DNA of 47,960 nt from positions 1-47,960 of the forward strand of contig CAYHDB010000004.1 of the NCBI GenBank assembly GCA_964355335.1. The letters are read 5' to 3'. Below the pieces are notes generated by a model, which was not told the DNA's origin, did no database searches, and saw only the letters and a list, made by a program, of their open reading frames with translations. Source of the DNA: an uncultured Candidatus Saccharibacteria bacterium (lineage in GTDB: Bacteria > Patescibacteriota > Minisyncoccia > Phycocordibacterales > SIBU01). The position numbers were made by a program, and so were the translations under genes. Of this stretch, positions 6,732 to 33,070 are shown in pieces. Numbering within the stretch: position 1 is the stretch's first letter; each line of letters opens with the position of its first letter.

Positions 6732-6749
6732 ATTGGTGTTGTGTCAGCA

Positions 6750-16099: not shown

Positions 16100-17251
16100 A
16101 TGAATGCACAACTTGATGTAAAAAGCTTGACAAGTGCGATGGTTTCGTTTGATACAGTTTCCTCGAAAAGCAACATGCCCCTAGTGAAATTCCTACATCC
16201 CCTGCTCACCGAGATTGGGTTTGAGGTAGAAATCCAGGGTCATGAGCTTCAGCAGGAAATACTGACAAAGGCGAACATCATTGCCCGAGCAGGTCCACGA
16301 GATGTGGAACCTCTGATGTTCTCCGCACACACCGACACAGTACCTGAGGGCAGCCATTGGGACTATAAGCCGTTTGAATTAACGGAGGACAAAAGACGCG
16401 GATTGCTGTTTGGACGCGGTGCAGTGGATATGAAAGGTTCAATCGCATCAATGATATGCGCATTGGCTCCACTTTTGCCAAAGGCGAACAGTTTCAAACG
16501 CGAACTGATTCTCGGATTAACCTTCGATGAAGAGGTGGGTTTGCTTGGCGCAAAACATCTCGTTCAATCCGGATTGATCAAGCCGAAATACGCATTGGTC
16601 GGTGAACCGACATTAATGAAACCGATGCGTATGCACAAGGGTCACATCTACTTGCGCGCCGTATGCCATGGAGCAAGCGGTCATGCGAGCGACCCGAAAA
16701 GCGGTGTAAATGCAATTGAGATTGCTGGACGGGTCATCGAAATACTGCGAGCATTTGCCGGGGAACTGGCAGTGCAAGGCAACGATGAGTATGACCCTCC
16801 TTACGCGACTCTCAATCTGGGTGTAATCAAGGGTGGCACGATAGCCAACGTAATCGCGGAAGAATGCATGATAGAGTTCGATATCCGCCCCATCGAGGGG
16901 CAGACATCAGACTTGATGATTCGCGACCTCGTGGCTCGTATGCAAAGCATCGGTGAACACTGCGGTCAACCACTTGTTTCTCTGAAGCTGACACGTTGCC
17001 CTACAGAACCGGTCACCACGGATCCAAATTCGTTGATTGTGACTGTCGCCGAGCAGGTAACCGGTATGAAGGCGCGAGGAGTGCCTTATGGTACGGATGC
17101 GTCCGTACTCCAACTAATGGGTACCGATTGTCTCATCCTTGGGCCTGGCGATATCGCACAGGCGCACAAGCCAAATGAGTATGTAAAAACCGAGCAACTC
17201 GAGCTTGCTGTAAGCAAATTCAGGCAAATCGCTCAAAAAATTTGCCTATGA
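16100..17251 (+). CDS. argE: Acetylornithine deacetylase (M20 family); probable start at ATG 16100
   Basis: SAHTDTVP, GRGAVDMKG, FDEEVGLLGA, VGEPT, HKG, YGTDA and GPGDIAQAHKPNEY; GAGGT SD; operon with argA. Confidence 0.85.
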   Translation: MNAQLDVKSLTSAMVSFDTVSSKSNMPLVKFLHPLLTEIGFEVEIQGHELQQEILTKANIIARAGPRDVEPLMFSAHTDTVPEGSHWDYKPFELTEDKRRGLLFGRGAVDMKGSIASMICALAPLLPKANSFKRELILGLTFDEEVGLLGAKHLVQSGLIKPKYALVGEPTLMKPMRMHKGHIYLRAVCHGASGHASDPKSGVNAIEIAGRVIEILRAFAGELAVQGNDEYDPPYATLNLGVIKGGTIANVIAEECMIEFDIRPIEGQTSDLMIRDLVARMQSIGEHCGQPLVSLKLTRCPTEPVTTDPNSLIVTVAEQVTGMKARGVPYGTDASVLQLMGTDCLILGPGDIAQAHKPNEYVKTEQLELAVSKFRQIAQKICL

Positions 17252-17270
17252 AATCCGGAAAGGAGTTCAC

Positions 17271-18500
17271 ATGAAAGACAGAAAATTGGCAACTAACAGA
17301 CTTCGTGAGATGCTCTATTACGTTGCGCGTTTCAGAAATTCGACCTTCGTCATCGCAATCGATGGCAGGGTACTGGAGGGAAATGACATGCTCTCTCTTG
17401 CAGAAGACATTTCCCTACTTCACTCAATCGGCATCCGTATTGCATTGGTGACAGGACTGTCGGATCAAAGTGACTTCAAAGAAAGACGAAGGACCCGATA
17501 CACACGGCTACGATCAACCACTGAGCAACTGTGCAAGTCCATCAATACGGTCCACCGAGGCCTCTCATCTCCTTTCATATCCAGAAGCGAGGAATCCCAA
17601 AATTTCGCGCAAAGGATCGACGAGGATGATATCGGCACAGGATTGCTTCCCAGCAGAGTCAGTGAGGCTCTCTCAGGCGGACTAATACCTGTGGTTGTCG
17701 CAAAGCCGATAAACGAGAAGACCGAGGATTCGTGGTTTGGTTCACTGCTGAGAGCAGCTACAAGTCTCTGTGGTGCAATCCTTACCGACAAATTGGTTTA
17801 CCTATCGTACTTTGACGGCATATTCACGGAAGGCAGAACTCTGCTTCGAGAGGCCCAGCTGGACCAAGTACAGCAACTGGTCGCGGATGAAACCATTAGC
17901 GGGCAATTCGCAGAGTTTGTGAAAACCGCCGAGACCGTCATTAACGCCGGAGTAATCCGCGTGCACTTCATCAACGGCAAAGTCGAAGGCAGTCTTCTTT
18001 GCGAACTGTTCACAAAAGACGGCGTCGGAACGATGATTCACCGAAATCAATATCAGGAAATTCGCCCCGCGCGAACGCCGGATATTAGTGGCATCCTGAA
18101 TGTGCTCGGTACGCAAGGAAGTCACGGCGACGTCAGACGACACACTGAGGAAATGATCAGTGCTCAACTCCCCAGCTACCGTGTCGTGGTCAAAGACAAT
18201 GGAGTTATAGCCTGTGGATGCCTACGTTGTTTCCCTGGAGAGAAAAAGGCACTTGTCAGTTCGCTTGGTGTTGACCAGTCCTATCTCAGTCAAGGAATCG
18301 GCGAACTTCTGCTTAAAAGCTTCATCACTGAGGCCAAGAGCAAAGGAGTCACTCTACTGACACTAGTAAGTCCTCAGACAGGTCAGTGGTGGCTTGGTCG
18401 AGAGTTTGACCCCGGGAAAGTCTCCGACCTTCCGAGCGACCTTCAGGCCAGCGTCAATACGCCCTCCACCACAATTTTGGTGAGTAGGCTCGAAGATTAA
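17271..18500 (+). CDS. argA: Amino-acid N-acetyltransferase ArgA (AAK + GNAT domains)
   Basis: Y..RFRNSTFVIAIDG, DISLLHSIGIR, GVIRVHFING..EGSLLCELFTKDGVGTMI, and C-terminal GNAT QGIGELLL. Confidence 0.85.
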   Translation: MKDRKLATNRLREMLYYVARFRNSTFVIAIDGRVLEGNDMLSLAEDISLLHSIGIRIALVTGLSDQSDFKERRRTRYTRLRSTTEQLCKSINTVHRGLSSPFISRSEESQNFAQRIDEDDIGTGLLPSRVSEALSGGLIPVVVAKPINEKTEDSWFGSLLRAATSLCGAILTDKLVYLSYFDGIFTEGRTLLREAQLDQVQQLVADETISGQFAEFVKTAETVINAGVIRVHFINGKVEGSLLCELFTKDGVGTMIHRNQYQEIRPARTPDISGILNVLGTQGSHGDVRRHTEEMISAQLPSYRVVVKDNGVIACGCLRCFPGEKKALVSSLGVDQSYLSQGIGELLLKSFITEAKSKGVTLLTLVSPQTGQWWLGREFDPGKVSDLPSDLQASVNTPSTTILVSRLED

Positions 18501-18516
18501 TCGTTCATTCAACCCG

Positions 18517-18556
18517 CCCGAAGTTACGCAAGTGTAACTTCGGGATTTTTATTTTT
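18517..18556 (+). terminator. Intrinsic terminator of argE-argA
   Basis: CCCGAAGTTACGC/GTGTAACTTCGGG hairpin followed by a U-tract. Confidence 0.85.
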
Positions 18557-18640
18557 CAAGATTGATAGTTAGGTATTAAAAAACGGCACCAAAAATAGCA
18601 CCGTTTACTTCACAAATCATTATGTTTTTCCACAAAACAT

Positions 18641-19417
18641 CTAAATCATTCCTTTAAGTCGGGATGCTTTAATCAAATCAATCCTCTCCCCTTCCTTTAT
18701 CGAACTCCCAATGATTGCTCCGTTCGCGACAGAGAATTGTTCTCGAATGTTTCCTTCATTCACGCCAGCACCGACAAAAATCGGAAATTGCGGAAATGCT
18801 TTCCGTACCTCCCTAATTTTCTCTATAGGTGTCTCAACTCCCGTCGCCTGACCTGTAATGACAAGTCCGTCTGAACCACTGTTTATCACAAGCTCAGCCG
18901 ATACCGCAAGTGGCCTTGGGGTCAACATTGTCTTGTACTTGACCTGTATGTCGGTAAGCAAAAGAAGCTCCGGGTAGATAGCATTTTTGTGGGAAAAGAT
19001 TTCTTCGGGCACGGGATTTATTTCACCCCATTTTGAACTGACGTGGTCCACGAACACATCGAGTCTCGTGAATTTCGCCCCAACAGCCTTCGCGATGGCA
19101 AAAGAAGTTTTCCAATCATTGAGCATCATCTGCACACCGATTGGGATTTTTGCAACTCGGCAAACCTCATTTGCGACAACAGAAAAACTCGCGATTTGCG
19201 CTTCGTTCGCAAACTCGGTATGTGGCTTGTCGTTGTCATTCTCAATCAATGCACCGTCAAACCCGGCTTTCTCCAAAGCCGAAAGATCCGCCAAAGCCCC
19301 CTCAATCATCTTCCCCATTCCAGAAAATCCTTCAATGGAAAGCAACGGTGGAAGGTGAATCATTCCGATAAGGATTTGATTTTCTTTGCCGAATACTTCA
19401 TTAATGCTTGGTTTCAT
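18641..19417 (-). CDS. BtpA/SgcQ family TIM-barrel protein
   Basis: IGMIHLPPL, IENDNDKP, DIQVKY, DGLVITGQATG, VGAGV and GAIIGSSIK. Confidence 0.9.
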   Translation of the reverse strand: MKPSINEVFGKENQILIGMIHLPPLLSIEGFSGMGKMIEGALADLSALEKAGFDGALIENDNDKPHTEFANEAQIASFSVVANEVCRVAKIPIGVQMMLNDWKTSFAIAKAVGAKFTRLDVFVDHVSSKWGEINPVPEEIFSHKNAIYPELLLLTDIQVKYKTMLTPRPLAVSAELVINSGSDGLVITGQATGVETPIEKIREVRKAFPQFPIFVGAGVNEGNIREQFSVANGAIIGSSIKEGERIDLIKASRLKGMI

Positions 19418-19591
19418 TCTTTTCTCCTCATATGGGTACTGTATTGTTCTTAAGATTCTAATTAGAAGTCGATTTATTACACGAAAGACTTCCTTATACC
19501 AAACATACAGTACAAAATATGTTGGCCACTGTCAAAACTTCAGTATCTTAAAATTACTGTGCGGATATTTAAAATAATATGATAGTAAAAT

Positions 19592-20659
19592 CTACAAGCC
19601 AACCCCTAATCCAGGCTTCGTAGGCACCTCAACTGTATACCCGTTCCACAACAATCTTGAGGCTTTTTTAGGCAAAAATCTACTTGGCAAAGTCAGATCG
19701 TAACTTACAAAGTCGCCCAGGCAGGATGCGTGTAAGTTATATGCTGTACCAACTTCTGACTGAATCATGTCACCAAGCATATACTTGAGTCCATTTTCTT
19801 GGCAATAAGCAATCATTCGCTTAGCCTCAAATAATCCCCCACATTTGCTTAACTTAATGTTAACCATATCGATTGCATGTTTTTCATTTAAAAGTTTCAG
19901 ATGCCAAAGGGTATGACAACTTTCATCCGCCATGATTGGAATATTCGTCTTAAGCCGTAGCGAAGCAAGTCCATCATAGTCCTCGGCGTGCAAAGGTTGC
20001 TCCAACCATTCAATCCTGACTGGATTTAAAGCCTTCAAAAAAACGAGCGCAGACATAGGTGAATTCCATGCTTGATTGGCATCAAGCACAATAGAAATAT
20101 CAGGAAACGACTTGTTAATCGCTTTTAATATACTTACCTCAACCAGTGTATCTCCACCGACTTTAAACTTAAATATTTTAACACCCTGCTTCTGCGCTTT
20201 TTTGATAACCTCCTCAGGACCATTGTGCATTTCCTCAAAAGAAAAAGTTTTCTGCAGGAGAACAGACACCTTATTCTTACCTCCAAGTAATTCAAATATA
20301 GGTTTCCCTTCGGCTTGCCCTAAAATATCAAGCATTGCCGATTCAATCGCAGATTTAATACCTGTATTTCCGGCAAGATATGAATTGATGTTCTCCATCA
20401 CGGTATTCACATCATCCAGATTAGAAATACTCGCCCCCGAAACAATGGGCTCAACAAGTTTTATTACAGCCAACGCACCTTCTTGAGTTTCGCCGGTGAC
20501 ATCCCATGCCAATGCCGCCTCTCCTAAACCGACCAAACCTGAATCAGATGTGATTCTCACAAGCACATATTTCAGAGTGTTCAATGTCAGTGTGTGATAT
20601 GAAAAAGGCTCCCTCAACTTGAGGTCAAACTTTTCAGCTTCTATCAACTTGATTGTCAT
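19592..20659 (-). CDS. Enolase superfamily, MLE subgroup (dipeptide epimerase / N-succinylamino acid racemase-like)
   Basis: GLGEA, KFKVG (KxK), DANQ, EQP, ADES, NIKLSKCGG and KPGLG. Confidence 0.88.
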   Translation of the reverse strand: MTIKLIEAEKFDLKLREPFSYHTLTLNTLKYVLVRITSDSGLVGLGEAALAWDVTGETQEGALAVIKLVEPIVSGASISNLDDVNTVMENINSYLAGNTGIKSAIESAMLDILGQAEGKPIFELLGGKNKVSVLLQKTFSFEEMHNGPEEVIKKAQKQGVKIFKFKVGGDTLVEVSILKAINKSFPDISIVLDANQAWNSPMSALVFLKALNPVRIEWLEQPLHAEDYDGLASLRLKTNIPIMADESCHTLWHLKLLNEKHAIDMVNIKLSKCGGLFEAKRMIAYCQENGLKYMLGDMIQSEVGTAYNLHASCLGDFVSYDLTLPSRFLPKKASRLLWNGYTVEVPTKPGLGVGL

Positions 20660-20683
20660 GTATGAAAAATAGCACGAGTATAT

Positions 20684-20717
20684 AAAAAAGAAAAGACGAT
20701 GACCTAGTCATCGTCTT
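20684..20717 (-). terminator. Intrinsic terminator after the ATP-grasp gene
   Basis: AAGACGATGAC-cta-GTCATCGTCTT perfect stem with a minus-strand U-tract. Confidence 0.85.
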
Positions 20718-20732
20718 GAATAACAATCGAAT

Positions 20733-21974
20733 TCAAACCTCAATTTCTCGCATTACCCTACGTTTCGCCTTTTCAAATCTTGCTTCTGCGGAAGCAGGTG
20801 ATACCCAGGAAATACCCGTGATATCGCAATAGCCGTGAGCAATCACACCTGGATTGGAGACGACCGCAAAACCTGAAAAGTGAGGGACCAGCAAATCACC
20901 GAGAAGGTTTTGAATTTCTAAAAAACTGTAAGCTTCGACACGGTCAGGAAGACGCAGGTGCTCATGCCTGAAAAAACCGCTGTCGGAGTTCGCGTGCGCC
21001 CGAGAAAGTCTGCGGACCATATCATGAACATAGAGGATTGCCCCTTTTCTTGGATTAAAGTCAATCCAGTAAGGGACACCGTCATCGTCCACAACAATAT
21101 CACAACAGAAGAAACCGATCGCACCTTCAGCAATCAAGGCGGGCCAAAATCTGCTCTCCGCCTCATTCATGATACATCGGCGAGTCTCTTTCGGTAAACT
21201 TTGGGCCGGCCAAACCGCTCCAGCATATCCGAAATTACGGGAAAGTTGCTCAAAAATACCAGTGAAGCACGCTTTTCCCTCTTCGGTTATCTGCCAATGA
21301 AGAGAAACCTCTGTCGAATGGGGTATGACTTCCTCAATCATAAACTCCGCACCAAAGGCCAATCCTTGTCCAGTCAAATTACGCAGCTGCTCCTCGTTGG
21401 CAATAAGCTTCATACCACCGCAAGCAATTCCACCAGTCCCATCCTCCGCCTTCAACAACAAGGTCTTGCCCACTTGAAGCATGGGAAGGCCGTGCCGAAG
21501 CAACTCTTCCCCGTTTCGGCACGCAAACCAAGAAGGTGTCCGCAAACCATTTCGGTCAAAAAACCTCTTGAAGTTCGGCTTGCGGGAAAGCGGAATAGAA
21601 ACATCGAAATTGCAGTACGGAGCTATTCCAAGAGCCTCTGACACCTGTCGTTCACTTTCCTCAATACAGAAGAACTCGAGACGGGATGGCTCTCCGTTTA
21701 CCCGCGACCGAATTTGCCCCTGAAGAAACTGGTTTCGAAGTACAAGTTGTGACAGGGTACATGTTGGGTCAAATGGACCAGCCACCAGAAACTCCGGGAG
21801 GTCAAATCCTAGGCCTTCCCAATAACGAAGAAAGTCCCGATTGATAGGGTCAGTAGTGACCACAACATCTCCCGTGCCCGCCTGACAGATACCACCACGC
21901 TGATCATACGATTGCTCCAAAGCGACACCTTTGAAATGACGGTTGCTCTGAGTGTCTAATATTACACGTCTCAT
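20733..21974 (-). CDS. ATP-grasp peptide/amide ligase with a pre-ATP-grasp domain (PGM1-like)
   Basis: GDVVVT..P...DFLRY N-domain, LLLKAEDGTGG, MIEEVI, GFFCCDIVV and WIDFNPR. Confidence 0.75.
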   Translation of the reverse strand: MRRVILDTQSNRHFKGVALEQSYDQRGGICQAGTGDVVVTTDPINRDFLRYWEGLGFDLPEFLVAGPFDPTCTLSQLVLRNQFLQGQIRSRVNGEPSRLEFFCIEESERQVSEALGIAPYCNFDVSIPLSRKPNFKRFFDRNGLRTPSWFACRNGEELLRHGLPMLQVGKTLLLKAEDGTGGIACGGMKLIANEEQLRNLTGQGLAFGAEFMIEEVIPHSTEVSLHWQITEEGKACFTGIFEQLSRNFGYAGAVWPAQSLPKETRRCIMNEAESRFWPALIAEGAIGFFCCDIVVDDDGVPYWIDFNPRKGAILYVHDMVRRLSRAHANSDSGFFRHEHLRLPDRVEAYSFLEIQNLLGDLLVPHFSGFAVVSNPGVIAHGYCDITGISWVSPASAEARFEKAKRRVMREIEV

Positions 21975-22015
21975 GATAGGTTCCTTTTGTTTTCAAATAG
22001 TTATTACCTCTAATT

Positions 22016-22053
22016 TCTAAATTTAGACTAACTGGCAACAACACCCTTGTCAA
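22016..22053 (-). promoter_or_regulatory. Promoter with palindrome TCTAAATTTAGA (shared-motif copy 3)
   Basis: TTGACA (22053-22048) lies 20 nt from the palindrome (22016-22027), the same spacing as copies 1 and 2. Confidence 0.5.
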
Positions 22054-22097
22054 GGGTCACAAAAAATACAGCACTGCTTAGATATAAATTTGAATAT

Positions 22098-22124
22098 AAA
22101 AAAGCGGCCTAAGTTAAGCCGCTT
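22098..22124 (-). terminator. Intrinsic terminator after the PLP enzyme
   Basis: AAGCGGC...GCCGCTT stem with a minus-strand U-tract. Confidence 0.7.
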
Positions 22125-22130
22125 CGTGTG

Positions 22131-23384
22131 TTATAGATGATGCTCCAAGACCTGTTCAGCAATGATGGTGCACAATTCTTCAAGGGTTGTTTTCTTTTCA
22201 ATCAACAACACTCTCCCAAGTTGTGGTGCTCCGTGTTTCTCGATGAGATCGGGACGATTTCGTCTTACCGAATCAAGCAATGTCTCGGAAATATCCGGAG
22301 CCACGCGAACAATCCCATGCTGATCTTTCGCGCCATTGCCTGTAAATGACAGCAACAGCACGTCTCTGGAATCAAATCGACTCTTCCACTTGAGAGCCGC
22401 GGCCAGGGACATAATGCCTGTCGGTTCGGGAATCACCCCCTTATTCACCAACTCATCTTCATTGGCAAGTACACGATACGCCTCACCCAGATCATTGTTG
22501 ATGAGACCCCCAAGAGGAAACCCTTCAGTCAACTTCAGGCCGTGCATCAACTGAGGCATGCTGTAGCTTTCTATGGCAATTGACCCTTCAGCGGCATCGA
22601 CCTCACTCTCTGAAGTTCGGAATTCCGTATATTTTTGCAGGGGAACGCTCTGATAGAACGCATCCTCTGTTGGAAATGCGCCCTTCATTCCAACAGGGAC
22701 AATTTTGGTTGGAACCGCTTTTTTTTGCCATGAAAATCCTAAAGCAATCCCAGCCAAGTAACTACCGTTGCCGACACCCGAAAGAACGTGAGTGGGTATT
22801 TCAGGAAGCGATAGGATGTCGTCAACAATCACGCTAAACCCAGGAAGAAGATCCTCGTTGTCGACATTGGCGTTACAAATGCCATCCAACCGACACAGGT
22901 CAGCTTTTGTAACGAGATTGTAAACATCTTCAAAGATTGCATCCTTCATTCCCACCACTGTCACGCTTGGAAACGCCGACAGGAGAGTTATCTTCGAGGA
23001 GGAGGCTGGAGTAAAAACAATTGCATTCGCTCCAATCTCCTGCACTCGCCGACACAAGGAATAAGCATGATTGCCGGACGATATAACCGAAAAAGTCCGC
23101 TTCCCCAAAGCATTCCCCATGTCAACGGCACGCTCCACCGAATAATCCTTCATACTGCCGGAAGGATTGGCTCCTTCATCGCGTATGAATACCCGACGGA
23201 CTCCAATGGCTCTGGCAATTTTCGGAACTTCGTATGTCGGAACACGAAACGGGCGTGGACGCACATCCGTTTTAGGTGGCCACAATATACCGTAGCCGAC
23301 AGCATCTGCGTGCACGCGTTTGTGCTCTGCGATGCAATCCCGGGCAACCATTTGGCCACATAGCAAACACTGAAACATACTCAT
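22131..23384 (-). CDS. Fold-type II PLP enzyme (threonine synthase-like) with an N-terminal Cys/His zinc finger; probable start at ATG 23384
   Basis: DEGANPSGSMKD (PLP lysine), SSGNHA, GVGNGS, EPTG and TGNGAKD; AAGGAGG SD before 23384. Confidence 0.8.
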   Translation of the reverse strand: MSMFQCLLCGQMVARDCIAEHKRVHADAVGYGILWPPKTDVRPRPFRVPTYEVPKIARAIGVRRVFIRDEGANPSGSMKDYSVERAVDMGNALGKRTFSVISSGNHAYSLCRRVQEIGANAIVFTPASSSKITLLSAFPSVTVVGMKDAIFEDVYNLVTKADLCRLDGICNANVDNEDLLPGFSVIVDDILSLPEIPTHVLSGVGNGSYLAGIALGFSWQKKAVPTKIVPVGMKGAFPTEDAFYQSVPLQKYTEFRTSESEVDAAEGSIAIESYSMPQLMHGLKLTEGFPLGGLINNDLGEAYRVLANEDELVNKGVIPEPTGIMSLAAALKWKSRFDSRDVLLLSFTGNGAKDQHGIVRVAPDISETLLDSVRRNRPDLIEKHGAPQLGRVLLIEKKTTLEELCTIIAEQVLEHHL

Positions 23385-23513
23385 TCTGGAACCCTCCTTT
23401 ATGTGGGTTGATTGTGAATTGTTAAAGACCGCTGTGGATAAGCCACCTGCATCACTGAGAGAAAAATTAGTCACTTTTACCCCCCTTTCAATATAGAGAT
23501 TATTTTCTAACAA

Positions 23514-23558
23514 TTTCTGAAGTTCAGATTAGACCATATCAAAACCACTGTCAACAAA
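23514..23558 (-). promoter_or_regulatory. Promoter with palindrome TCTGAAGTTCAGA (shared-motif copy 1)
   Basis: TTGACA...TGGTCTAAT followed by the palindrome at 23516-23528; 38/45 identical to 24420-24464. Confidence 0.7.
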
Positions 23559-23613: not shown

Positions 23614-24399
23614 CTACTTTTGATGGCGACAGAAAAAGAGCCCTTCGTTGTTTATCCCGACCCCGAGATAGCCCTGTTCTAGCAAACCGGATATCTGGGA
23701 ATGAGTTTCCAGACACACAGGTTGAGGTTCATCGGGTTTATCAAACCCTACGGGGACAAACACACAGTTGGGAGGTAAGGGATTCTTGGGAGGAAAGACA
23801 AGGTTACCGGCGAGTTTCTTCCTGAGGCGAAGCCCCAAATCCTTATTAATATCCGAACCGTAGAAATTTGGCATGCACTCATAAATCTCATAGCCCATAC
23901 CCAATCGCAGTCCCAGGCTGGCACCATTTGAAACACGAATAGCCATAAACAACTCGGTCACACCCTCCGCCCTGGCAAGGTTCTCCTGGTGGTAGGCAAT
24001 ATGCCTGCCAAACCCTTCACCTGTATATTCAGGCAATAAACCTGTGCTGTAGCAATAACCTGCTGGATAGGAAAAATGAAAAGACATCTCATCAATGTGA
24101 TGAAAAAGGATTTGGGAATGACCGATAAGCTCGCTACTCGCCTTCACTCGCATTAATATCAAGGATCCAAATGCCACAATCTTTCTCAACTCATCGATGG
24201 ATATTTCCTGTTCACCTTCAAACACCTTGTCGTCAACAAGCTTAACCTCCTTAAGGACCGACTCATCTGACGTTGAAAGCTCAAAGAAAACTTCATGACC
24301 TCTCTTACCCCTGGCCTCGCCCAACCTTTTACCGATCATTTGACTCACAGTGCCCAGTTTTCCAAAATTCAGATTAGACATACTGTCTCCTTCTATCAA
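23614..24399 (-). CDS. GNAT family acyltransferase
   Basis: TGLLPEYTGEGFGR acyl-CoA motif A, N.AS..L...GY and PNFYG. Confidence 0.8.
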   Translation of the reverse strand: MIEGDSMSNLNFGKLGTVSQMIGKRLGEARGKRGHEVFFELSTSDESVLKEVKLVDDKVFEGEQEISIDELRKIVAFGSLILMRVKASSELIGHSQILFHHIDEMSFHFSYPAGYCYSTGLLPEYTGEGFGRHIAYHQENLARAEGVTELFMAIRVSNGASLGLRLGMGYEIYECMPNFYGSDINKDLGLRLRKKLAGNLVFPPKNPLPPNCVFVPVGFDKPDEPQPVCLETHSQISGLLEQGYLGVGINNEGLFFCRHQK

Positions 24400-24419
24400 A
24401 AAGGTTTTACCTTCACTAT

Positions 24420-24464
24420 TTTCTGAATCTCAGATTAAGCCATATCAAAACCGTAGTCAACAAA
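24420..24464 (-). promoter_or_regulatory. Promoter with imperfect palindrome TCTGAATCTCAGA (shared-motif copy 2)
   Basis: TTGACT...TGGCTTAAT; 38/45 identical to 23514-23558. Confidence 0.7.
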
Positions 24465-25599: not shown

Positions 25600-26298
25600 C
25601 TAATTCAGACCCTCTGGATCGCCTTGGAGCAATACCCCGCCGAGAGGCACATGGGTTATGGTATTTATTTCATCGCATGTCCCACTCAAGACGAAACGTT
25701 CGCATTCGGCAAGAGGAATTTTGTATAGAACAACCCGCTGATCTGAGGGTCCCGCCAGACACATCCCCAAAACGTTGAGATAGGGAAAGTGTCCCACGAC
25801 ACCAACTCTAAGAAGAAGCTTATTGAGAACGGGATCGCCATCTCTCCGTAGCAAAACGGTTTTAACTTCAACAACGAACTTCTCCGCGACTACTTCGATG
25901 CGCCGATCAATGGCGCATCGTGCTGGTTTATCTTTTCCCCATTTTACCCAGTCATATCCGTTGCGTTTCCTTGCCTCGAGCAGAATTTTCGCATCACTAC
26001 TCTCAGCAGGATCGGCGCTCTTAGGATTTGGGTCGTAAAGTTCCGGTATTTCAACCAGCGAAGTGTTTGGGTTTGAGAGTGCAAGAGCCAGACGGTGTGT
26101 TCGGATTGCCGGTGAGTAAAATACAACATCAAACTCAGTACCCTCCTTCTTCAGCGCCAAACGAAGCATCTTGATTTGTTCCTTTCCTTCGTCGTTTGGC
26201 AGTCGAAATAAATCGTGAATGTTCGTCACTTCATCCGTCATCATGTCCCGGATAAGTTGGAATTCGATTCTCTTTTTGCCTGTTATGTTCACAATCAA
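25600..26298 (-). CDS. Degenerate histidine-phosphatase-fold protein
   Basis: FYSPAIRT..LA, IPEL and VVGH motifs are present, but RHG appears as RDM. Confidence 0.5.
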   Translation of the reverse strand: MIVNITGKKRIEFQLIRDMMTDEVTNIHDLFRLPNDEGKEQIKMLRLALKKEGTEFDVVFYSPAIRTHRLALALSNPNTSLVEIPELYDPNPKSADPAESSDAKILLEARKRNGYDWVKWGKDKPARCAIDRRIEVVAEKFVVEVKTVLLRRDGDPVLNKLLLRVGVVGHFPYLNVLGMCLAGPSDQRVVLYKIPLAECERFVLSGTCDEINTITHVPLGGVLLQGDPEGLN

Positions 26299-26456: not shown

Positions 26457-26491
26457 GGCTTAATGATAACTATTCGACAGCGATACCGAAA

Positions 26492-28366
26492 CTACATTCG
26501 CTCAGGAATCCCGATACCGAGCAATTTGAGTCCGTTTTCGAGCACCACCCGTGTAGCCTTGCACAACTCGAGCCGCTCCCGACAAACGACACCCTCGGTG
26601 ATCACATGCTGGCTCCGATAGAACGACGAAAAGGCTTTCGCTATTCCATAGAGTGCACCCGTGACCATCGAAGGGTTATATTGCTCTGTCGCTCGCGCCA
26701 CCACACCAGGGAACTCCATCAAGGCTTTGATGAGTTGAAAGGCATCATCATCCATCAAGGCGCTTGGGTCCTCCACCTCAGGCAGCCCTTCCGCTTTCTT
26801 GATGATTGACCCAATCCGAACACAGGAATACTGAATGTACGGTCCTGTGTCACCCTCAAACTCAATGGACTTCTCTGGGTCGAACAGCATGTCAAACCGA
26901 GGAGTGACCGTAGCAAGATAGTAGTTAAGCGCCCCAATCGCGATGATCGCGGAGGAACGTCGAACTTCTTCCTCACCGATGTCCGAACCGGCACGCTGAA
27001 GCTTCTGCGCCGCCGCCTGCTCGAGTTCGTCGAGCAAATTGTCGGCATCCACCACCGTTCCCTCTCGAGACTTCATCCTACCGGACGGCAGATTCACCAT
27101 CCCGTAGGAGAGGTGGTACAAAGACGACGCCCAATCATAGCCGTAGCGCTTGAGCAATTCGAAAAGAACTTTGAAATGATGGTCCTGTTCCGTGGCGACC
27201 ACGTAAATGATGCTATCAAGTCGTCCCTCTTGTTCGAACCGCGTTACGGCCAGACCAACATCTTGAGTCATGTACACCGATGTCCCGTCGGCCCGCAAGA
27301 GAAGCTTTTTGTCGAGGTTTACGTCAGTGAGGTCAATCACGACCGCGTCGTCCGCTCGTCGTTCACCAATTCCTTTTTTCAATCGGTCCAGAACGATTTT
27401 GCGTCCCAGCAAGTAAGTCTGACTTTCGTAATAGACCCGGTCAAACGTAAATCCCAATCGGGCGTTTGACTGATCGAACCCCGACAGCACCCACTGGTTC
27501 ATCTGTTTCCAAAGCGGGAGAACCGTTGGATTTCCCAACTCCCACTGTCGAAGCATCTCTCGAGCCTCAATCATCAGCAGGCATTCCTTTTCGAACAACT
27601 CGTCGTTTTGCTCCTGGCCTTCATCGGTAAGTTCGTCCCAGACAACTCCTTTTTCCTTCAGCCACTCGGCCTTCAGACGTCGGAGTTCGGTCTCGAACCT
27701 GACATAGTATCGCCCGACGAAATGGTCTCCTTTTTCACCTGTCGATTCGGGTGTCTCTCCATTACCGAACTTTTGGTAAGTGAGCATCGACTTGATGATG
27801 TGAATGCCCCGGTCATTGATGTTGTTCGCCTTGAGCACAGTTGCACCGCAGGCTTCAAGCATTCGAGCTGTGATTGTTCCAATCACACCGTTTCGAAGGT
27901 GTCCGAGATGAAGAGGCTTGTTTGTATTCGGAGAAAGATACTCCACCATACAGGTCTTCCCCGCAAGTTTACTGTTGCGACCGTATCGCTCGCCTTCTGA
28001 GAGAATCATCGCTACCGTAGGCGCGCTTATTAAGGCGCGACTGAGTCGGATATTCACGTAGGGCCCGGCGACCGAAACACTTTCAATCTTGGGGTCAGAC
28101 GGAATCGCGGAAGCGAGCATATTCGCCACAGCGGTTGCATCCTCTGGCTTGATCTTGTCTTGATGATAATACTCTTTCGCCAAACCGTAGCAGGCGACCG
28201 AAATGTCACCGAACTTAGGATTAGGCGTAGCGCCGACGTGAACAGCCTTCCGAGGCGACTCACAACCGGCAAACTCATCCGAACAGAGTGCCGTGCATAA
28301 TGCATCTTCGACTAGGTAAGCAAGACAGCTTTCCGACTTTGCAACCAAATTTTTCGTGGATTTCAT
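26492..28366 (-). CDS. argS: Arginine--tRNA ligase
   Basis: VEYLSPNTNKPLHLGHLRN (HIGH), NDRG, LLRADGTSVYMTQD, MKSREG, FEGDTGPYIQY and C-terminal LGI.IPERM. Confidence 0.95.
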   Translation of the reverse strand: MKSTKNLVAKSESCLAYLVEDALCTALCSDEFAGCESPRKAVHVGATPNPKFGDISVACYGLAKEYYHQDKIKPEDATAVANMLASAIPSDPKIESVSVAGPYVNIRLSRALISAPTVAMILSEGERYGRNSKLAGKTCMVEYLSPNTNKPLHLGHLRNGVIGTITARMLEACGATVLKANNINDRGIHIIKSMLTYQKFGNGETPESTGEKGDHFVGRYYVRFETELRRLKAEWLKEKGVVWDELTDEGQEQNDELFEKECLLMIEAREMLRQWELGNPTVLPLWKQMNQWVLSGFDQSNARLGFTFDRVYYESQTYLLGRKIVLDRLKKGIGERRADDAVVIDLTDVNLDKKLLLRADGTSVYMTQDVGLAVTRFEQEGRLDSIIYVVATEQDHHFKVLFELLKRYGYDWASSLYHLSYGMVNLPSGRMKSREGTVVDADNLLDELEQAAAQKLQRAGSDIGEEEVRRSSAIIAIGALNYYLATVTPRFDMLFDPEKSIEFEGDTGPYIQYSCVRIGSIIKKAEGLPEVEDPSALMDDDAFQLIKALMEFPGVVARATEQYNPSMVTGALYGIAKAFSSFYRSQHVITEGVVCRERLELCKATRVVLENGLKLLGIGIPERM

Positions 28367-28531
28367 TCATTTTTCCTGGGTTTGTAGCGATTTGTATCGC
28401 TGTTTTTAAGGTTCTGCAAAGAAATATTTCCTTGAGCTAAACGAACATTATGGCTTTTTTCAGCAACTGTCAACATATTGACACTTTAATATAACAATAT
28501 CAAAAACCGTTTCTACGGTACTTATCTTTTC

Positions 28532-28566
28532 AAAAAAAGGAGAAGATTCATCAGAATCTTCTCCTT
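28532..28566 (-). terminator. Intrinsic terminator after the M20 gene
   Basis: AAGGAGAAGATTC-atca-GAATCTTCTCCTT perfect 13-bp stem with a U-tract. Confidence 0.85.
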
Positions 28567-28602
28567 GCTTCAAATTATCTAATCACCGTATCAGATGGCC
28601 GT

Positions 28603-29688
28603 CTACAGGCTTTCCAGAAAGGTGAGGATGCATTGATAATGGCGTTGCAACGACACTTCACTTACCCATTCATCCTCTTGATGTGCGCCTCCTCCTATTG
28701 GAAGGAACAACGTTGCAGGAGTACCGTTTTCCGCAAAGAAAACAGCATCACTTGTTCCCGCCTCTCGTTTCATCTCAACCTTCTGGCCTGTGACCCTTTT
28801 GATCGCTTCGGACAGTTTTCTCACATGGACATTGTCCGGATCGACCTCAAGCGCGGAATTTTCAGCAATGATCTCACAGGTGCCGGATACATCGAGAAAA
28901 TTGTTCACAGTATCCAAAACAAGTTGTCGGTGACCATTTGTCACATAACGAATATCGAAACATGCTTCGGCCATTTCCGGTATTTGATTGACAGCGGTGC
29001 CGGAATTGATTTTGGTCAAAACCACAGAAGTCTTCCAGTCATCCTTCGTGCAAGGCTGAGGGAACACACTGTGCAAATGGCTCATCAATTCAAACACCTT
29101 CACAATCGGGTTAACTCCTTCAGAAGGCCTGGAGGCGTGAGCACTTTTGCCCACAACCGAAATCTTCAATTGCAGAAATCCCTTTTGTCCAACAATAATT
29201 TCATTCTCACTTCCTCCGTCGGACAACAAAGCAAAATCCGCTTGATACTCTCTGCTATCTAGAAGCGCTTTCATTGACGCTCCACTGGTCTCTTCATCAG
29301 TACTCACCAGGATCGCAATACGCTTCGAGGTATCAGGTGAGGCCTCAAGAAAATCACGGACAGCGCACATACCAGCAAGAAGCGGCCCCTTCATATCAAT
29401 CACTCCCCGCCCATAAAGCCTGCCGCCATCACTCTGCATGACGAACCGCTCATCACTAGAGGCCGGAACAACGTCAATGTGGCCGGAAAGAATGAAATCA
29501 AACCGCCCACCCTCCACATTGGAAAGCAACAACATCGGTTGACCTGCAGACTGCAGGCGAGTCACAATAAGTTTGTCGCCAAAAGCGCCTTCGATAGTCT
29601 TCAGGCAATCCGCAATTGCCTCGTTGTTGCCTAGAACCGATTTGAATGAGATCAACTTGGCCAACAATTGAATGTCCTGTGTTTTCAT
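28603..29688 (-). CDS. M20 family metallo-deacylase/peptidase (DapE/ArgE-like)
   Basis: SGHIDVVP, GRGVIDMKG, TDEE, GKSAHAS.P..G.N, GTSDA and GAHQEDE. Confidence 0.9.
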   Translation of the reverse strand: MKTQDIQLLAKLISFKSVLGNNEAIADCLKTIEGAFGDKLIVTRLQSAGQPMLLLSNVEGGRFDFILSGHIDVVPASSDERFVMQSDGGRLYGRGVIDMKGPLLAGMCAVRDFLEASPDTSKRIAILVSTDEETSGASMKALLDSREYQADFALLSDGGSENEIIVGQKGFLQLKISVVGKSAHASRPSEGVNPIVKVFELMSHLHSVFPQPCTKDDWKTSVVLTKINSGTAVNQIPEMAEACFDIRYVTNGHRQLVLDTVNNFLDVSGTCEIIAENSALEVDPDNVHVRKLSEAIKRVTGQKVEMKREAGTSDAVFFAENGTPATLFLPIGGGAHQEDEWVSEVSLQRHYQCILTFLESL

Positions 29689-29989
29689 ATGTCAATTTGC
29701 AAACTGCGATTCCGTATGTTTTCTGTAAGCGTCTACAACGATAGTAGAACGCACCGTAACTGATGAAACAATATAAATTGTTTAAGAAACTGTCAATAAA
29801 TGTTACCTCTAAAAATCCTTGGGTCACGCACTATATTTGTTGACTATCTTCACTAAACTGGTATAACTACCGCAGAAAGAAATTGCCAATCTCTCTACAG
29901 TACGACAATATCCTCATCCGCGAAGATTTGCGGATATCTAGATAGGTCGAATGACCCGACTGTAACAACGGCAACGGAGAACGTTAACA

Positions 29990-31237
29990 ATGAAAATGGT
30001 TCTAGCATACTCAGGTGGCCTCGATACTTCGACGCTACTACATTGGCTCAAGAAGAAATACGATGCCGAAATGATCGCTTTCTGCGCCGACGTCGGCCAG
30101 GAGGAGGAACTCAGCGGACTCGAAGACAAGGCAACAAAAACCGGCGCTTCACGCGTTTACATTTCCGATCTGCGGGAGGAATTCGCTCGGGATTTCATCT
30201 TCCCGATGATGCAAGCGGGCGCGACCTACGAAGGCCAATACCTTCTAGGTACGAGCATCGCTCGTCCTCTCATCGCCAAGGAATTGGTCAGAATTGCCCA
30301 GTTGGAAAAAGCCGATGCCGTCGCGCACGGATGCACAGGCAAGGGCAACGACCAGGTCCGTTTCGAACTCGCGGTGGCGACCCTCGCTCCAGAACTCAAA
30401 GTCATCGCCCCGTGGCGCGACGAAAGTTTCCGTAAAGAGTTACCTGGCCGACAGGAGATGATTGCTTACTGCAAACTGCACGATATTAAGGTGGAAGCGA
30501 GCGCCGAGAAACCGTACTCCACGGACAGAAACCTGTTGCACATTTCCTTCGAGACCGGCATCCTGGAGGAACTCGACTTCAACGCATTCCAGCCTTCGAA
30601 CAAGGACATGTTCAAGCTCTCTGTGGCGCCGGAAGACGCCCCGGATGAGCCTGAATACATCGTTCTCAGATTCGAGAATGGAATTTGCATTGACGTCAAA
30701 GCTCACGCGGACGAGTTTGGCCAAAGATTAAGCCCTCTTACCGTCATTAAGACGCTCAACACAATCGGTGGCAAACACGGCATCGGTCGAGTGGACATGG
30801 TGGAGAATCGCTATGTGGGTATGAAATCACGAGGCGTGTACGAGACGCCCGGTGGTACCATCCTTCATTTCGCCCACCGGCAGATGGAATCGATAACAAT
30901 GGACCGTGAAGTCATGCACCTGCGCGACTCGCTCATCCCCCGCTACGCCGAAATGGTTTACTACGGCTACTGGTTCGCCCCGGAGCGTCTTGCTCTCCAA
31001 GCCCTCATCACCGAAAGCCAAAAGAACGTGACGGGTACAGTGCGTCTGAAACTCTACAAAGGCAACATCATGGTTGCCGGTCGTTTCTCTCCAGTAAGCC
31101 TGTACAGCCCTGCCATCGCCACGATGGAGGCCGACCCCACAAAGGCTTACGACCAAAACGACGCCACAGGCTTCATCCGATTGAATGCCCTCCGTCTCAA
31201 AGTTGCAGCCCGACTGCGACAAGGCAATAAGGTGTGA
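29990..31237 (+). CDS. argG: Argininosuccinate synthase
   Basis: [43 protein letters not shown] and [18 protein letters not shown]. Confidence 0.97.
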
Positions 31238-31268
31238 ACGACACCTCACAAACATCGTTCATTAATTC

Positions 31269-31317
31269 AACCACCGTCTAGTAGCACCAAGTGCGAACGG
31301 CGGTTTTTTCTTTTTTT
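31269..31317 (+). terminator. Intrinsic terminator after argG
   Basis: AACCACCGT...ACGGCGGTT stem followed by a long U-tract. Confidence 0.7.
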
Positions 31318-31440
31318 AATACCAATCTTACCAATTTAAGCTATCCACATTTGCATTTCAGACACGTTTCCCTATACTTCTACTCAGAGGTACCCGAGAT
31401 GTGGGTACCAATTTTTAAAAGAAAACACTAATAACAACAA

Positions 31441-31881
31441 ATGAGCAAAACAAAAAAAGCACTCGACGATGACCCTTCACGTAGGACGGGCGGTTCCAAT
31501 GAAATCAAGGGATACGGTCCACATCTCACATACGACGGATACGGAGCTGATCCGGCCCGCCTGAATGATATGAAGATTGTGTTCGACTTCTTGTTGAATC
31601 TGCCCAAAATCATCGGGATGCAACGGCTGACAATGCCGTACGTCCTATCGTACGACGGCGCGGACAAACCGAACGATTATGGTGTGACGGGAGTTGTTAT
31701 TATTGCGACTTCCCACATCTCAATCCACACTTACCCGCACGACAGGACATTCTTTTTGGACATCTTTTCCTGCAAAGGATTCGATCAAGAAAAGGCCCTC
31801 GCCTACATCCGAAAAACCTTCGGTGCAAAAAGTGAAGAGGTGGACCTCGTCACTCGAGGAAAACGTTTTCGCCAGAAGTAA
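31441..31881 (+). CDS. Pyruvoyl-dependent decarboxylase, SpeD/SpeH (AdoMetDC) family
   Basis: GPHL..D, GVTGVVIIATSHISIHTYP and LDIFSCK; autocleavage site is T|SH rather than the usual E|SH. Confidence 0.85.
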   Translation: MSKTKKALDDDPSRRTGGSNEIKGYGPHLTYDGYGADPARLNDMKIVFDFLLNLPKIIGMQRLTMPYVLSYDGADKPNDYGVTGVVIIATSHISIHTYPHDRTFFLDIFSCKGFDQEKALAYIRKTFGAKSEEVDLVTRGKRFRQK

Positions 31882-31912
31882 GCAAGTTTACTTCCGTTAA
31901 GCAAAACAAATC

Positions 31913-31946
31913 GACACCAAGGACAGCTCCCTCGGTGTCTTTTTTT
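31913..31946 (+). terminator. Intrinsic terminator after the SpeD-like gene
   Basis: GACACCAAGG...CCTCGGTGTC stem followed by a T-run. Confidence 0.75.
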
Positions 31947-32032
31947 ATTAAATCAACTTTAGTTCAGCAAAAATCGTGACGTTAAAGTTTTATTAAATTA
32001 CCACTTTTCGATTAATTAAGTATAATAATTGA

Positions 32033-33070
32033 ATGAAATTCGTTAAATTGGCCAAACTTAATAAGGGCGACAAAGTTGCAATACTTTCCCCCTCATTTGC
32101 TGCTCCCGGCAAATGGCCACATGTTTATGAACTGGGATTAAAAAGATTGCGTGAGATTTTCGAACTTGAGCCTGTAGAGTTTCCTACGACAAAAAAACTT
32201 GGAGCCTCGACCAAGGAAAGATCTGACGACCTCATTAAAGCTTTTGAAGACAAGTCAATAAAGGCCGTAATAACTACACTTGGCGGAAACGACCAAGTCA
32301 CTTATATAAAAAACCTGTCTCCTAAAACATTTACAGAAAATCCGAAACCTTTTTTTGGATTTAGCGACAATTCTCATTTTATGAACTTTTTGTGGCAACT
32401 AGGAATACCGTCGTATTATGGCGGGGCCCTATTTACCCAATTTGCCCGACAAGGAAAAATGGATGACTATACTATCAAGTACTTAAAAAAAGCTTTTTTT
32501 GAATCAGAAAACGTAGAAATCAAGGCGAGCGATACATACAATGACATTGGACTTGGATGGGACGACCTTGAAAATCTTAAAAAATTCAGAGAGTATGAAA
32601 CCAATGAAGGTTGGATATGGGATGGCGCCACCAACATTGAGGGCATAACATGGGGCGGATGCCTTGAATCTATCGACGAGATGCTAAGACACGGAATTAA
32701 AATCCCTTCGCCTGAGGATTTTAAAAACATCATACTTCTTACCGAAACATCAGAGGAGATTCCTAAACATGAATATGTATTCCGGGTATATAGAGCATTG
32801 GGAGAAAGAGGTCTACTTGAAAATGTGCGGGCAGTCTTGGTTGGCCGTCCGAAAGCGTGGGAATTTGATAAACCCAACAATGCCGATGAAAAAGCAAAAT
32901 ACAAGCAGAAACAACGTGAAGTAATCCTAAAAATAATTAGGCAATACAATGAATCGGCTCCTGTCATTCAAAATGTGGACTTTGGCCACACTGACCCGCA
33001 AATACCCTTCCCCTACGGAGGCATAGTAAAAATAGATTCCGAAAACAAAAAAATCTTTGCCCAATTTTAA
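32033..33070 (+). CDS. S66 peptidase (LD-carboxypeptidase / MccF-like)
   Basis: GDKVAILSPS, GGND, GFSD (Ser), WGGCLE, ETSEE (Glu) and DFGHTDPQ (His). Confidence 0.92.
   Translation: MKFVKLAKLNKGDKVAILSPSFAAPGKWPHVYELGLKRLREIFELEPVEFPTTKKLGASTKERSDDLIKAFEDKSIKAVITTLGGNDQVTYIKNLSPKTFTENPKPFFGFSDNSHFMNFLWQLGIPSYYGGALFTQFARQGKMDDYTIKYLKKAFFESENVEIKASDTYNDIGLGWDDLENLKKFREYETNEGWIWDGATNIEGITWGGCLESIDEMLRHGIKIPSPEDFKNIILLTETSEEIPKHEYVFRVYRALGERGLLENVRAVLVGRPKAWEFDKPNNADEKAKYKQKQREVILKIIRQYNESAPVIQNVDFGHTDPQIPFPYGGIVKIDSENKKIFAQF

Follow-up and report, generated by a model that had tools for sequence, protein, structure and literature searches.

Gene Content of the Island

Patescibacteria are thought to depend on their hosts for amino acids. 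The 47,960-nucleotide stretch of DNA analyzed here (the window) is the entire contig C4 of an assembly from an uncultured Candidatus Saccharibacteria bacterium (968 kb in 56 contigs, 92.6% complete, 2.9% contamination), and between 16.0 and 33.1 kb it carries an island of genes related to arginine metabolism. An original prediction, made from the sequence alone, had described this island as arginine-centered with an incomplete biosynthetic route. Scanning the 39 open reading frames (ORFs) of the window against Pfam and NCBIfam recovered every enzyme on which that description was based: ArgE, an ArgA-like protein, ArgG, the arginyl-tRNA synthetase ArgS (ArgRS), a second M20 enzyme, an AstE-like deacylase and a SpeD-like decarboxylase. 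The island genes are listed below. Here and in the following, L-, G- and C-numbers designate loci, genomes and contigs, respectively.

16034-17251, plus strand: ArgE, M20 deacylase of the acetylornithine deacetylase type (TIGR01892, 311 bits; cut-off 297.7)
17271-18500, plus strand: ArgA-like protein with AAK and GNAT parts (PF00696 and PF00583; TIGR01890, 176.5 bits; cut-off 202.85)
18641-19417, minus strand: BtpA/SgcQ family protein (TIGR00259, 172 bits; cut-off 153.4)
19592-20659, minus strand: MR/MLE, enolase-superfamily enzyme resembling N-acyl-amino-acid racemases
20733-21974, minus strand: PreATP-grasp/ATP-grasp amide ligase (family A1; PF18604)
22131-23513 as listed, minus strand: PALP, ThrC-like fold-type-II pyridoxal phosphate (PLP) enzyme (PF00291)
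23614-24399, minus strand: GNAT N-acyltransferase (PF00583, E 4e-5)
24538-25440, minus strand: AstE/AspA-family zinc deacylase (AstE_AspA_cat, PF24827)
25600-26298, minus strand: 232-aa protein beside ArgS, no family at E<=0.001
26492-28366, minus strand: ArgS, island copy (TIGR00456, 385 bits; cut-off 262)
28603-29688, minus strand: M20b, M20 deacylase of the DapE/ArgE subfamily (TIGR01910, 166 bits; below all equivalog cut-offs)
29990-31237, plus strand: ArgG, argininosuccinate synthase (NF001770, 565 bits; cut-off 334)
31441-31881, plus strand: SpeD-like pyruvoyl decarboxylase of the AdoMet_dc family (PF02675)
32033-33070, plus strand: S66 LD-carboxypeptidase-family hydrolase (PF02016 and PF17676)

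The product of 17271-18500 also stays below the cut-off of NF003641 (202 bits) and is, as judged by its profile scores, ArgA-like and not a certified ArgA. The 232-aa protein gives only chance-level family matches even at E<=1, and bears no similarity to a 241-aa protein at the same position in the same-genus genome G026.

A Conserved Module with Interchangeable Enzymes

A profile of the ligase family (A1, built from 30 homologues) retrieved 24 loci from species-representative genomes, against which all 39 window proteins were compared by tblastn. A PALP profile (A2, eight proteins) retrieved a further 35 loci from metagenomes, 19 of them on contigs shorter than 6 kb. The core of the recurring module consists of ArgS, PALP, ATP-grasp, MR/MLE and M20b, and 8 of the 24 genome loci contain all five. 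The order ArgS-PALP-ATP-grasp-MR/MLE-M20b is found in L003, L004, L005, L008, L009 and L021, with an EamA gene between MR/MLE and M20b in L004; in L006 and L007, ArgS is placed after M20b. M20b directly follows MR/MLE in L003, L006, L007, L008, L009 and L021, and the ATP-grasp gene immediately follows PALP in 13 of the 35 metagenome loci. The accessory enzymes of the island do co-occur in other genomes, then, and in a fixed order. The ligase itself was found in none of 60 relatives (six of the same genus, 54 of the same order).

The module proteins of these loci are 34-63% identical to those of the window, except for the weak M20b of L005 (23%). The window ArgG is 35-38% identical to the module-adjacent ArgG of L003, L004, L008 and L021, and the corresponding values for ArgE and the ArgA-like protein are 31-35% and 25-27%. 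Since these arg genes are less similar than the module proteins, they seem to have been brought in next to the module on more than one occasion. The island is indeed arginine-centered, as originally proposed, but argA, argE and argG do not form its center, which is the module of ArgS, PALP, ligase, racemase and deacylase, a grouping that the original description had not singled out.

The company of the module in other lineages is rich in arginine enzymes. Pfam and NCBIfam scans of the neighbors showed that ArgG has a true ArgH beside it in L003, L004, L008 and L021, that L003 also encodes a true ornithine transcarbamylase (OTC), and that L009 encodes ProBAC. Near the module, L003, L005, L007, L009, L012, L021, L065, L066, L068, L083 and L086 also have an ArgE/ArgA-like pair. 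Two Planctomycete loci read ArgA (over cut-off)-ligase-AstA-like-M20-ArgS, and L078 reads DDAH-DDAH-AstE-GNAT-PALP-ligase-MR/MLE-AstE-ADI-ArgS; its ArgS belongs to another type and shares 28% identity with the window ArgS. In L065, with 66-82% identity to the window throughout, SpeD is followed by ArgS-AstE-PALP-ligase-MR/MLE-BtpA and then ArgA-ArgE. Only this locus has a BtpA homologue at the same position (80% identity); L089 has a weak one and L003-L026 have none, and by this distribution the BtpA/SgcQ gene is a lineage-specific addition. An S66 gene directly precedes the ligase in L013.

Two positions of the module are occupied by alternative enzymes. In L068, L071, L073, L077 and L082, a GNAT lies between PALP and MR/MLE, and the locus contains no ATP-grasp gene; L084 provides a sixth PALP-GNAT pair. 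The five GNATs between PALP and MR/MLE are 29-36% identical to the window GNAT, and the one from L068 finds window positions 23629-24255 in the reverse search (E 7e-34). Similarly, the M20b position after MR/MLE is taken by an AstE-like enzyme in L078, L083 and L086; elsewhere, such an enzyme adjoins ArgS (L065) or the ligase (L022, L025, L026). Around a racemase that stays constant, one position is thus held by either of two unrelated acylating enzymes and another by either of two unrelated deacylases. Ligase, GNAT, M20b and AstE-like enzyme are all present in the window.

The ligase also occurs with racemases of other families. In L012 this is an Asp/Glu racemase, found along with an M15 D-Ala-D-Ala dipeptidase; L015 has Ala_racemase_N and L018 a DAP-epimerase-like gene. 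Such company points to D-amino-acid chemistry. On a group of Gram-negative-type contigs, the neighbors of PALP are a PF04392 binding protein and an NNMT-like methyltransferase. The former shares 47-53% identity with its counterpart next to the ligase in loci from Desulfobacterota and a spirochaete. As a side observation, this PF04392 "ABC substrate-binding" family occurs in L085, L092-L097, L010, L015-L017 and L019, with members 47-77% identical. L085 also encodes a PRMT-like arginine methyltransferase, and L093-L095 encode a fusion of the binding protein with MscS.

Decarboxylases form a third variable element. The SpeD-like gene stands beside ArgS in G026 and L065. PLP-type arginine decarboxylases are found in L004 and L008 and a pyruvoyl type in L005, and PLP-type or PvlArgDC enzymes occupy equivalent places in L004, L005, L008, L022 and L068. 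Three nonhomologous decarboxylase families (Orn_Arg_deC, PvlArgDC and AdoMet_dc) thus occur beside ArgS or the module. There is crenarchaeal precedent for a SpeD-like arginine decarboxylase. Because the three families share equivalent places and no spermidine synthase family member was found in the genome, we read the SpeD-like protein of the window as a putative arginine decarboxylase.

A reduced version of the island is present in G026 (contig G026:C1, locus L062, 5976-13379). Its SpeD-like protein, second ArgS, ArgA and ArgE are 74%, 75%, 66% and 83% identical to those of the window, and it includes the 241-aa orphan mentioned above. The ThrC-like enzyme of this island differs: it is 26% identical to the window PALP and keeps the Arg of ThrC. 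No ligase, racemase, M20b or ArgG was found in the G026 island.

A Second Arginyl-tRNA Synthetase

A search of the genome for a second argS, as the original prediction had suggested, was positive. Besides the island copy, an ArgRS at C1:59020-60729 (372 bits) also exceeds the cut-off, and the two are 33% identical to each other. The same duplication is seen in all nine full-module genomes (eight others and this one; in G004 and G007, one of the copies is cut by contig ends). All eight small Patescibacteria-type genomes that have only the ligase, with or without M20b or AstE, contain a single ArgRS. Among the 60 relatives, only the same-genus G026 has two full-length ArgRS. With G026 counted, two ArgRS copies and a PALP gene beside ArgS go together in 10 of 10 cases. 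Two of the relatives, G048 and G068, have their single ArgRS as two halves on different contigs (residues ~19-335 and 322-569, and 1-369 and 373-569), which may reflect a split gene or an assembly break.

In a maximum-likelihood tree of 27 ArgRS sequences, the island copies form one clade (support 97/96), which also includes the second copy of G001 and the sole ArgRS of G010, G011 and G013, three genomes without a match to the PALP family at E<=1e-10. The non-island copies scatter among different ArgRS types, and the C1 enzyme groups with the single-copy enzymes of other small genomes. The island clade keeps the HLGH motif and has K in place of S in the MS[ST]R motif. These motifs suggest that the island ArgRS is a functional enzyme belonging to a different ArgRS type. 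By keeping a second ArgRS in a genome of 1 Mb, the acquired module singles out arginine, or a mimic of it, as a resource under special selection.

Racemase, Ligase and PLP Enzyme

The best solved relatives of the MR/MLE enzyme are 2p88/2p8b/2p8c (172 bits, E 2e-49), ahead of dipeptide epimerases (158-147 bits). Aligned to 2p88, 3jva, 1jpm and 3q45, the window enzyme contains KxK, the D/E/D metal ligands and the second catalytic Lys, and the segments FKFKVG, LDANQ, LEQP, MADES and NIKLSK are conserved. It has D-L-T where 1jpm (YkfB) and 3q45 have DxD (D-F-D) and 2p88 has E-L-T, and a Leu at the position of YkfB Arg24. In B. subtilis YkfB numbering, DxD binds the dipeptide ammonium group and Arg24 the Glu side chain. 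Identification as an Ala-D/L-Glu epimerase fails on these two features and on its score (NF041118, 165 bits; cut-off 500), and the match to DgcA stays far under its cut-off (NF042940, 139 bits; cut-off 400). The protein in 2p88 we take to be BC0371. According to a review, BC0371 is an N-succinyl-L-Arg racemase, with N-succinyl-L-Arg as its best substrate (kcat/KM 1.4e5), which groups with Ala-Glu epimerases yet lacks three of their residues (PMC2948282). The window enzyme combines the active-site motif of an N-acyl racemase with the matching context, an adjacent acylating enzyme upstream and a deacylase downstream across loci.

The ligase has 59 homologues with 33-83% identity, mostly in Patescibacteria-type records and also in Desulfonema magnum. 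The names shown for them are all "hypothetical protein" or a generic ATP-grasp domain name. Its AlphaFold model (pLDDT 94.8) finds BesA (8yi6, E 7e-24) and the Streptomyces peptide ligases 8ynd and 3wvq/3wvr as top Foldseek matches, followed by PurK and PurD. The AstE-like enzyme has its best solved relatives in N-acetyl-L-2,4-diaminobutyrate deacetylase (6twm/6twl, E 7e-9).

The PALP profile matches ThrC best among the solved structures (2zsj, 72 bits), followed by Ser dehydratases and racemases. We rejected an assignment as threonine synthase: the protein scores 40.5 bits against TIGR00260 (cut-off 167) and has H, V and L at the phosphate-site residues of T. thermophilus ThrC, which we take to be T88, S155 and R160. 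The PLP Lys motif SGSMKD is conserved, and an N-terminal zinc-finger-like motif, CxxC...HxxxH (HKxxxH), is invariant before the PLP domain. Seven homologues show no conservation of the first 43 residues, so the listed frame is probably 43-45 codons too long, with the true start at Met44 (23384) or Met46 (23378). The ESM Atlas returned only sub-0.9 matches to "cysteate synthase family" clusters, a lead and not evidence.

Missing Steps of the Classical Arginine Pathway

The original prediction also held that argB, argC, argD, argF and argH are missing from the window, and our scans of its 39 ORFs agree. The remaining genes did not turn up elsewhere in the assembly to complete a normal pathway either. 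Because about 7% of the genome is unassembled, this means "not found" and not "absent". In the whole assembly argH, argC and argD have no matches, and the search for argB hits nothing but the AAK portion of the ArgA-like protein, at 25 bits. The only OTC-family match, on contig C52, falls below the OTC cut-off and scores as aspartate carbamoyltransferase (PyrB; TIGR00670, 236.6 bits vs cut-off 236.95). Searches by tblastn with the OTC and ArgH of relatives added nothing further. By the same method, the relatives' PLP- and pyruvoyl-type arginine decarboxylases, ProA/B/C, deoxyhypusine-synthase-like protein, Asp/Glu racemase and M15 dipeptidase found no counterpart in this genome, in which an arginase/agmatinase family member was likewise not found. 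We conclude that the region is a real arginine-centered unit in a genome with an incomplete classical route.

Across all nine full-module genomes, neither argB nor argD exceeds its cut-off and the search for argC gave no matches; ArgG is over the cut-off in five, ArgH in four and OTC in one. In all four relatives that have them, ArgG and ArgH sit on the contig of the module, and the ArgG of this genome lies in the window. Neither ArgG nor ArgH exceeds its cut-off in any of the eight ligase-only genomes, and G026 likewise yielded no ArgG. We read the island as an acquired arginine-dedicated module, as opposed to decayed arginine biosynthesis.

Two ways of repairing the classical pathway with island genes were considered and rejected. 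Replacement of ArgB, ArgC and ArgD by the four enzymes without assigned function would call for a reductase or aminotransferase, and none is conserved in the locus. The MR/MLE enzyme as a nonhomologous ArgH is contradicted by the relatives that have a true ArgH beside the same MR/MLE.

Proposed Function

We propose that the module runs a three-step stereoinversion cycle on arginine or a very close analogue. In the first step, the alpha-amino group would be N-acylated, either by the ATP-grasp ligase from an acid and ATP or by the GNAT from acyl-CoA. The enolase-superfamily enzyme would then racemize the N-acyl amino acid, and a stereoselective deacylase, M20b or the AstE-like enzyme, would free the other enantiomer. 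The ThrC-like PLP enzyme and the phylogenetically distinct second ArgRS would be constant companions of this cycle. The arginine-interconverting enzymes could serve as optional side entrances and exits that lineages recruited independently: ArgE, the ArgA-like protein, ArgG and the SpeD-like enzyme here, and ArgH, OTC, DDAH, ADI and other decarboxylases elsewhere. An acylate-racemize-deacylate scheme is suggested by the interchangeable acylating and deacylating enzymes that flank a constant racemase, and arginine or a near analogue as substrate by the closest characterized relative of the racemase and by the arginine-specific company of the module in unrelated lineages. From these observations we infer the substrate, the order of the steps and the direction; the core mechanism as a whole may be right or wrong with about equal probability.

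The two purposes named in the original prediction, salvage and interconversion of arginine derivatives or supply of a small peptide metabolite, both survive as the leading readings. If the cycle operates, salvage or detoxification is slightly favored: D-, N-acyl- or modified arginine would be converted to L-Arg that the co-encoded ArgRS and decarboxylase can use, a direction to which we give somewhat better than even chances. Production comes close behind, at somewhat less than even chances, and would yield a D- or analogue amino acid or a dipeptide, with the extra ArgRS as self-protection.

Several observations weigh against the proposed cycle. A plain acylate-racemize-deacylate scheme offers no role for the PLP enzyme, which of all partners is the one most closely tied to ArgS, and the ArgS-PLP pair can evidently work without the cycle, as G026 has the pair and no ligase, racemase or M20b. 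The substrate is deduced from context and from one characterized relative at ~172 bits. The ligase of Desulfobacterota and of one spirochaete has the PF04392 protein, MFS fusions and other racemases as its neighbors, and no arginine genes lie nearby. An island-type ArgRS is the only ArgRS of G010, G011 and G013, which indicates that this type is not intrinsically special-purpose. ArgG without ArgH in this genome is explained by neither the salvage nor the production version. Finally, the loci were retrieved via the module's own proteins, related loci are not independent, and most of the genomes are incomplete metagenome-assembled genomes.

As an alternative, the island may be a small biosynthetic cluster for an arginine antimetabolite or a dipeptide with a D-residue. 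The PLP enzyme would build an arginine- or citrulline-like amino acid, ArgG and ArgH (or DDAH and ADI) would tailor its ureido or guanidino group, and ligase, racemase and deacylases would make or process a dipeptide or N-acyl prodrug, with the extra ArgRS, and perhaps N-acylation, protecting the producer. This would account for the presence, in 9 of 9 full-module genomes, of one ArgRS inside the cluster and another outside it, and for the tight joining of PALP to ArgS, which persists in G026 with a different ThrC-like enzyme. The ligase fold is nearest to the natural-product ligases BesA, 3wvq/3wvr and 8ynd, the spread of the module is patchy and looks horizontal (no ligase in the 60 relatives), and an EamA transporter gene lies within the module in L004 and 3 kb off in the window. 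There is also a precedent in the tiarin clusters: in a preprint, cluster-encoded ArgRS copies and GNATs are described as giving immunity to ArgRS-inhibiting tiarins (bioRxiv 10.64898/2025.12.02.691738). Against such a cluster stand the absence of known warhead chemistry and of a dedicated exporter conserved across the loci, the three genomes that live with an island-type ArgRS alone, and the substitution of a GNAT for the ligase, which is more in keeping with simple N-acylation than with assembly of a dipeptide. Genomes of ~1 Mb, moreover, rarely afford secondary metabolism. On balance we consider an antimetabolite cluster unlikely. Its most elaborate form is less likely still: a mobile Patescibacteria cluster in which a short ureido or guanidino amino acid, built by the PLP enzyme, would be tailored by ArgG/ArgH or by DDAH/ADI in reverse, as with plant canavanine, then N-acylated or ligated and epimerized to a protease-proof D-form prodrug, with the ArgRS protecting translation in the producer. 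If true, this elaborate form would place a chemical weapon or a tool for host manipulation in an episymbiont with a ~1-Mb genome.

The enzyme families of the island also recall cell-wall metabolism, where a ligase-epimerase-peptidase set could make or recycle a D-amino acid for peptidoglycan, for example D-Glu via an N-acyl or dipeptide intermediate without glutamate racemase, or by murein-peptide recycling of the LdcA-MpaA-YcjG-PepD type. The S66, AstE/M14-like, MR/MLE and M20 families do match the enzyme types of murein-peptide recycling, and the nonhomologous racemases beside the ligase in L012 (with its M15 dipeptidase), L015 and L018 fit this picture. It fails as the principal explanation, and with it cell-wall service becomes improbable, because the racemase has neither the DxD nor the Arg24 of Ala-D/L-Glu epimerases and because the second ArgRS and the ArgG/H, DDAH, ADI and arginine decarboxylase genes beside the module are left unaccounted for. 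A bypass of MurI for D-Glu was rejected as well: only 2 of the 9 full-module genomes have a MurI over the cut-off, and this one yielded none, but the anticorrelation is only partial, as MurI and MR/MLE coexist in G006, G019 and G011. More improbable still is a remnant or incompletely assembled classical arginine pathway, whose missing genes were unassembled or recently lost and whose neighbors are unrelated. The state of the assembly (92.6% complete, 56 contigs) leaves room for it, and 4 of the 8 module-bearing relatives have ArgH and one has OTC. Neither argB nor argD exceeds its cut-off in any of the nine full-module genomes, however, argC has no match in any, and the lower similarity of the arg genes compared with the module proteins suggests separate recruitment, not shared decay.

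The stereoinversion cycle remains our preferred reading. Whatever its direction, the module joins four enzyme families without assigned function into one testable unit: the PreATP-grasp ligase, the ThrC-like PLP enzyme, the N-acyl racemase and the DapE/AstE-type deacylases. PALP beside ArgS, together with two ArgRS copies, provides a genomic marker for a new arginine-salvage route or for a new class of ArgRS-directed metabolites. In the literature we found no paper joining Patescibacteria, arginine biosynthesis and ATP-grasp, and nothing relevant on ArgRS/ATP-grasp/racemase gene clusters, on N-succinylamino acid racemase with D-arginine and desuccinylase, or, as far as literature listings go, on argininosuccinate synthase in the candidate phyla radiation.

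Additional Features of the Window

A 45-nt leader element containing TTGACA recurs on the minus strand as direct-repeat family D1:

23514-23558, minus strand: first D1 copy
24420-24464: second copy, 84% identical to the first
24359-24403: third copy, 62% identical

The D1 copies sit immediately upstream of the PALP and GNAT genes and may be a shared promoter or operator. Strong hairpins with T-runs lie on the minus strand between M20b and ArgS (28367-28602), PALP and the ligase (21975-22130), and the ligase and MR/MLE (20660-20732). They may be terminators, attenuators or copies of the palindromic elements found in this genome. Scans of the window for promoters and terminators gave counts not above those of shuffled sequences (27 vs 21.8 ± 4.7 and 26 vs 19.7 ± 5.5). 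A known regulatory RNA such as a T-box was rejected, with no Rfam match at the gathering score and one chance-level hairpin (E 0.21). No tRNA genes were found in the window.

Outside the island, the window carries a type IV pilus set (pilin, PilC and PilB; 6180-9810), a MazF-like toxin gene (40025-40351) and two large proteins (1109 and 1274 aa; 40608-47785), almost without family matches in the Pfam scan. Genes for TrpR/YerC-family regulators occur a few kb from the module in the window (14001-14279, minus strand), L025 (12169-12582) and L086 (11237-11479). In L081, a 1206-aa IleRS with an inserted His_Phos_1 domain (2034-5654, minus strand) adjoins an M20 gene and a PALP-family gene. At 10609-13089, on the minus strand, lies a gene for an 826-aa protein resembling phosphoenolpyruvate (PEP) utilizers, with a PPDK_N ATP-binding part and a PEP-utilizer mobile domain of the Rph/PigC/RedH type. 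The original prediction had drawn on such an enzyme for an analogy with phaseolotoxin clusters. This analogy does not hold up: the protein has no homologue in the 24 genome and 35 metagenome loci and is for this reason not part of the module, and no hallmark of phaseolotoxin, such as a resistant OTC or an amidinotransferase, was seen. No OTC was found, and tblastn returned no homologue of the GME/amidinotransferase superfamily (DDAH- or ADI-type) in the genome.

Comparison with Known Systems

The island overlaps with the classical ArgA-H pathway and the arginine succinyltransferase (AST) pathway in its ArgE and ArgG, which pass curated cut-offs, and in its ArgA-like and AstE-like proteins; an AstA-like gene also flanks the ligase in the Planctomycete loci. 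It differs from the former in that searches of this assembly did not recover argB, C, D, F or H, and from the latter in that neither an AstC/D-type class-III aminotransferase nor a ProA-type aldehyde dehydrogenase was found. The DgcN-DgcA route to D-glutamate shares the logic of acylation followed by racemization by an enolase-superfamily enzyme, but the window enzyme scores far under the DgcA cut-off, and its context is arginine, not glutamate. Tiarin (trifolitoxin-like) clusters resemble the island in having one ArgRS inside, another elsewhere and GNATs nearby. In contrast to these clusters, the island has no precursor of a ribosomally made, post-translationally modified peptide (RiPP) and no tfx-type enzyme, and its type of ArgRS serves as the sole ArgRS in three genomes.

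The ligase shares PF18604 and its fold with BesA and the PGM1 ligases 3wvq/3wvr (Foldseek E 7e-24 to 1e-20, TM-score 0.75-0.78). BesA joins Glu and propargylglycine, and PGM1 a guanidino acid and a peptide. Sequence identity of these enzymes to the window ligase is only 16-19%, and its 59 family members carry no functional name.

The closest parallel to the proposed cycle is the N-succinylamino-acid racemase route. A Geobacillus kaustophilus operon reportedly combines a GNAT succinyltransferase, an enolase-superfamily racemase and an M20 desuccinylase for the conversion of D- to L-amino acids. The same GNAT, MR/MLE and M20 types stand side by side in the island, and the window racemase is nearest to 2p88, with the epimerase DxD lost in both. 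Unlike this route, the island module usually has an ATP-grasp ligase in the place of the acyltransferase, can replace M20 by an AstE-type enzyme, and has the PLP enzyme and the second ArgRS as constant parts. The use of an ATP-grasp enzyme instead of acyl-CoA is likely a new acyl-donor solution for the acylate-racemize-deacylate logic.

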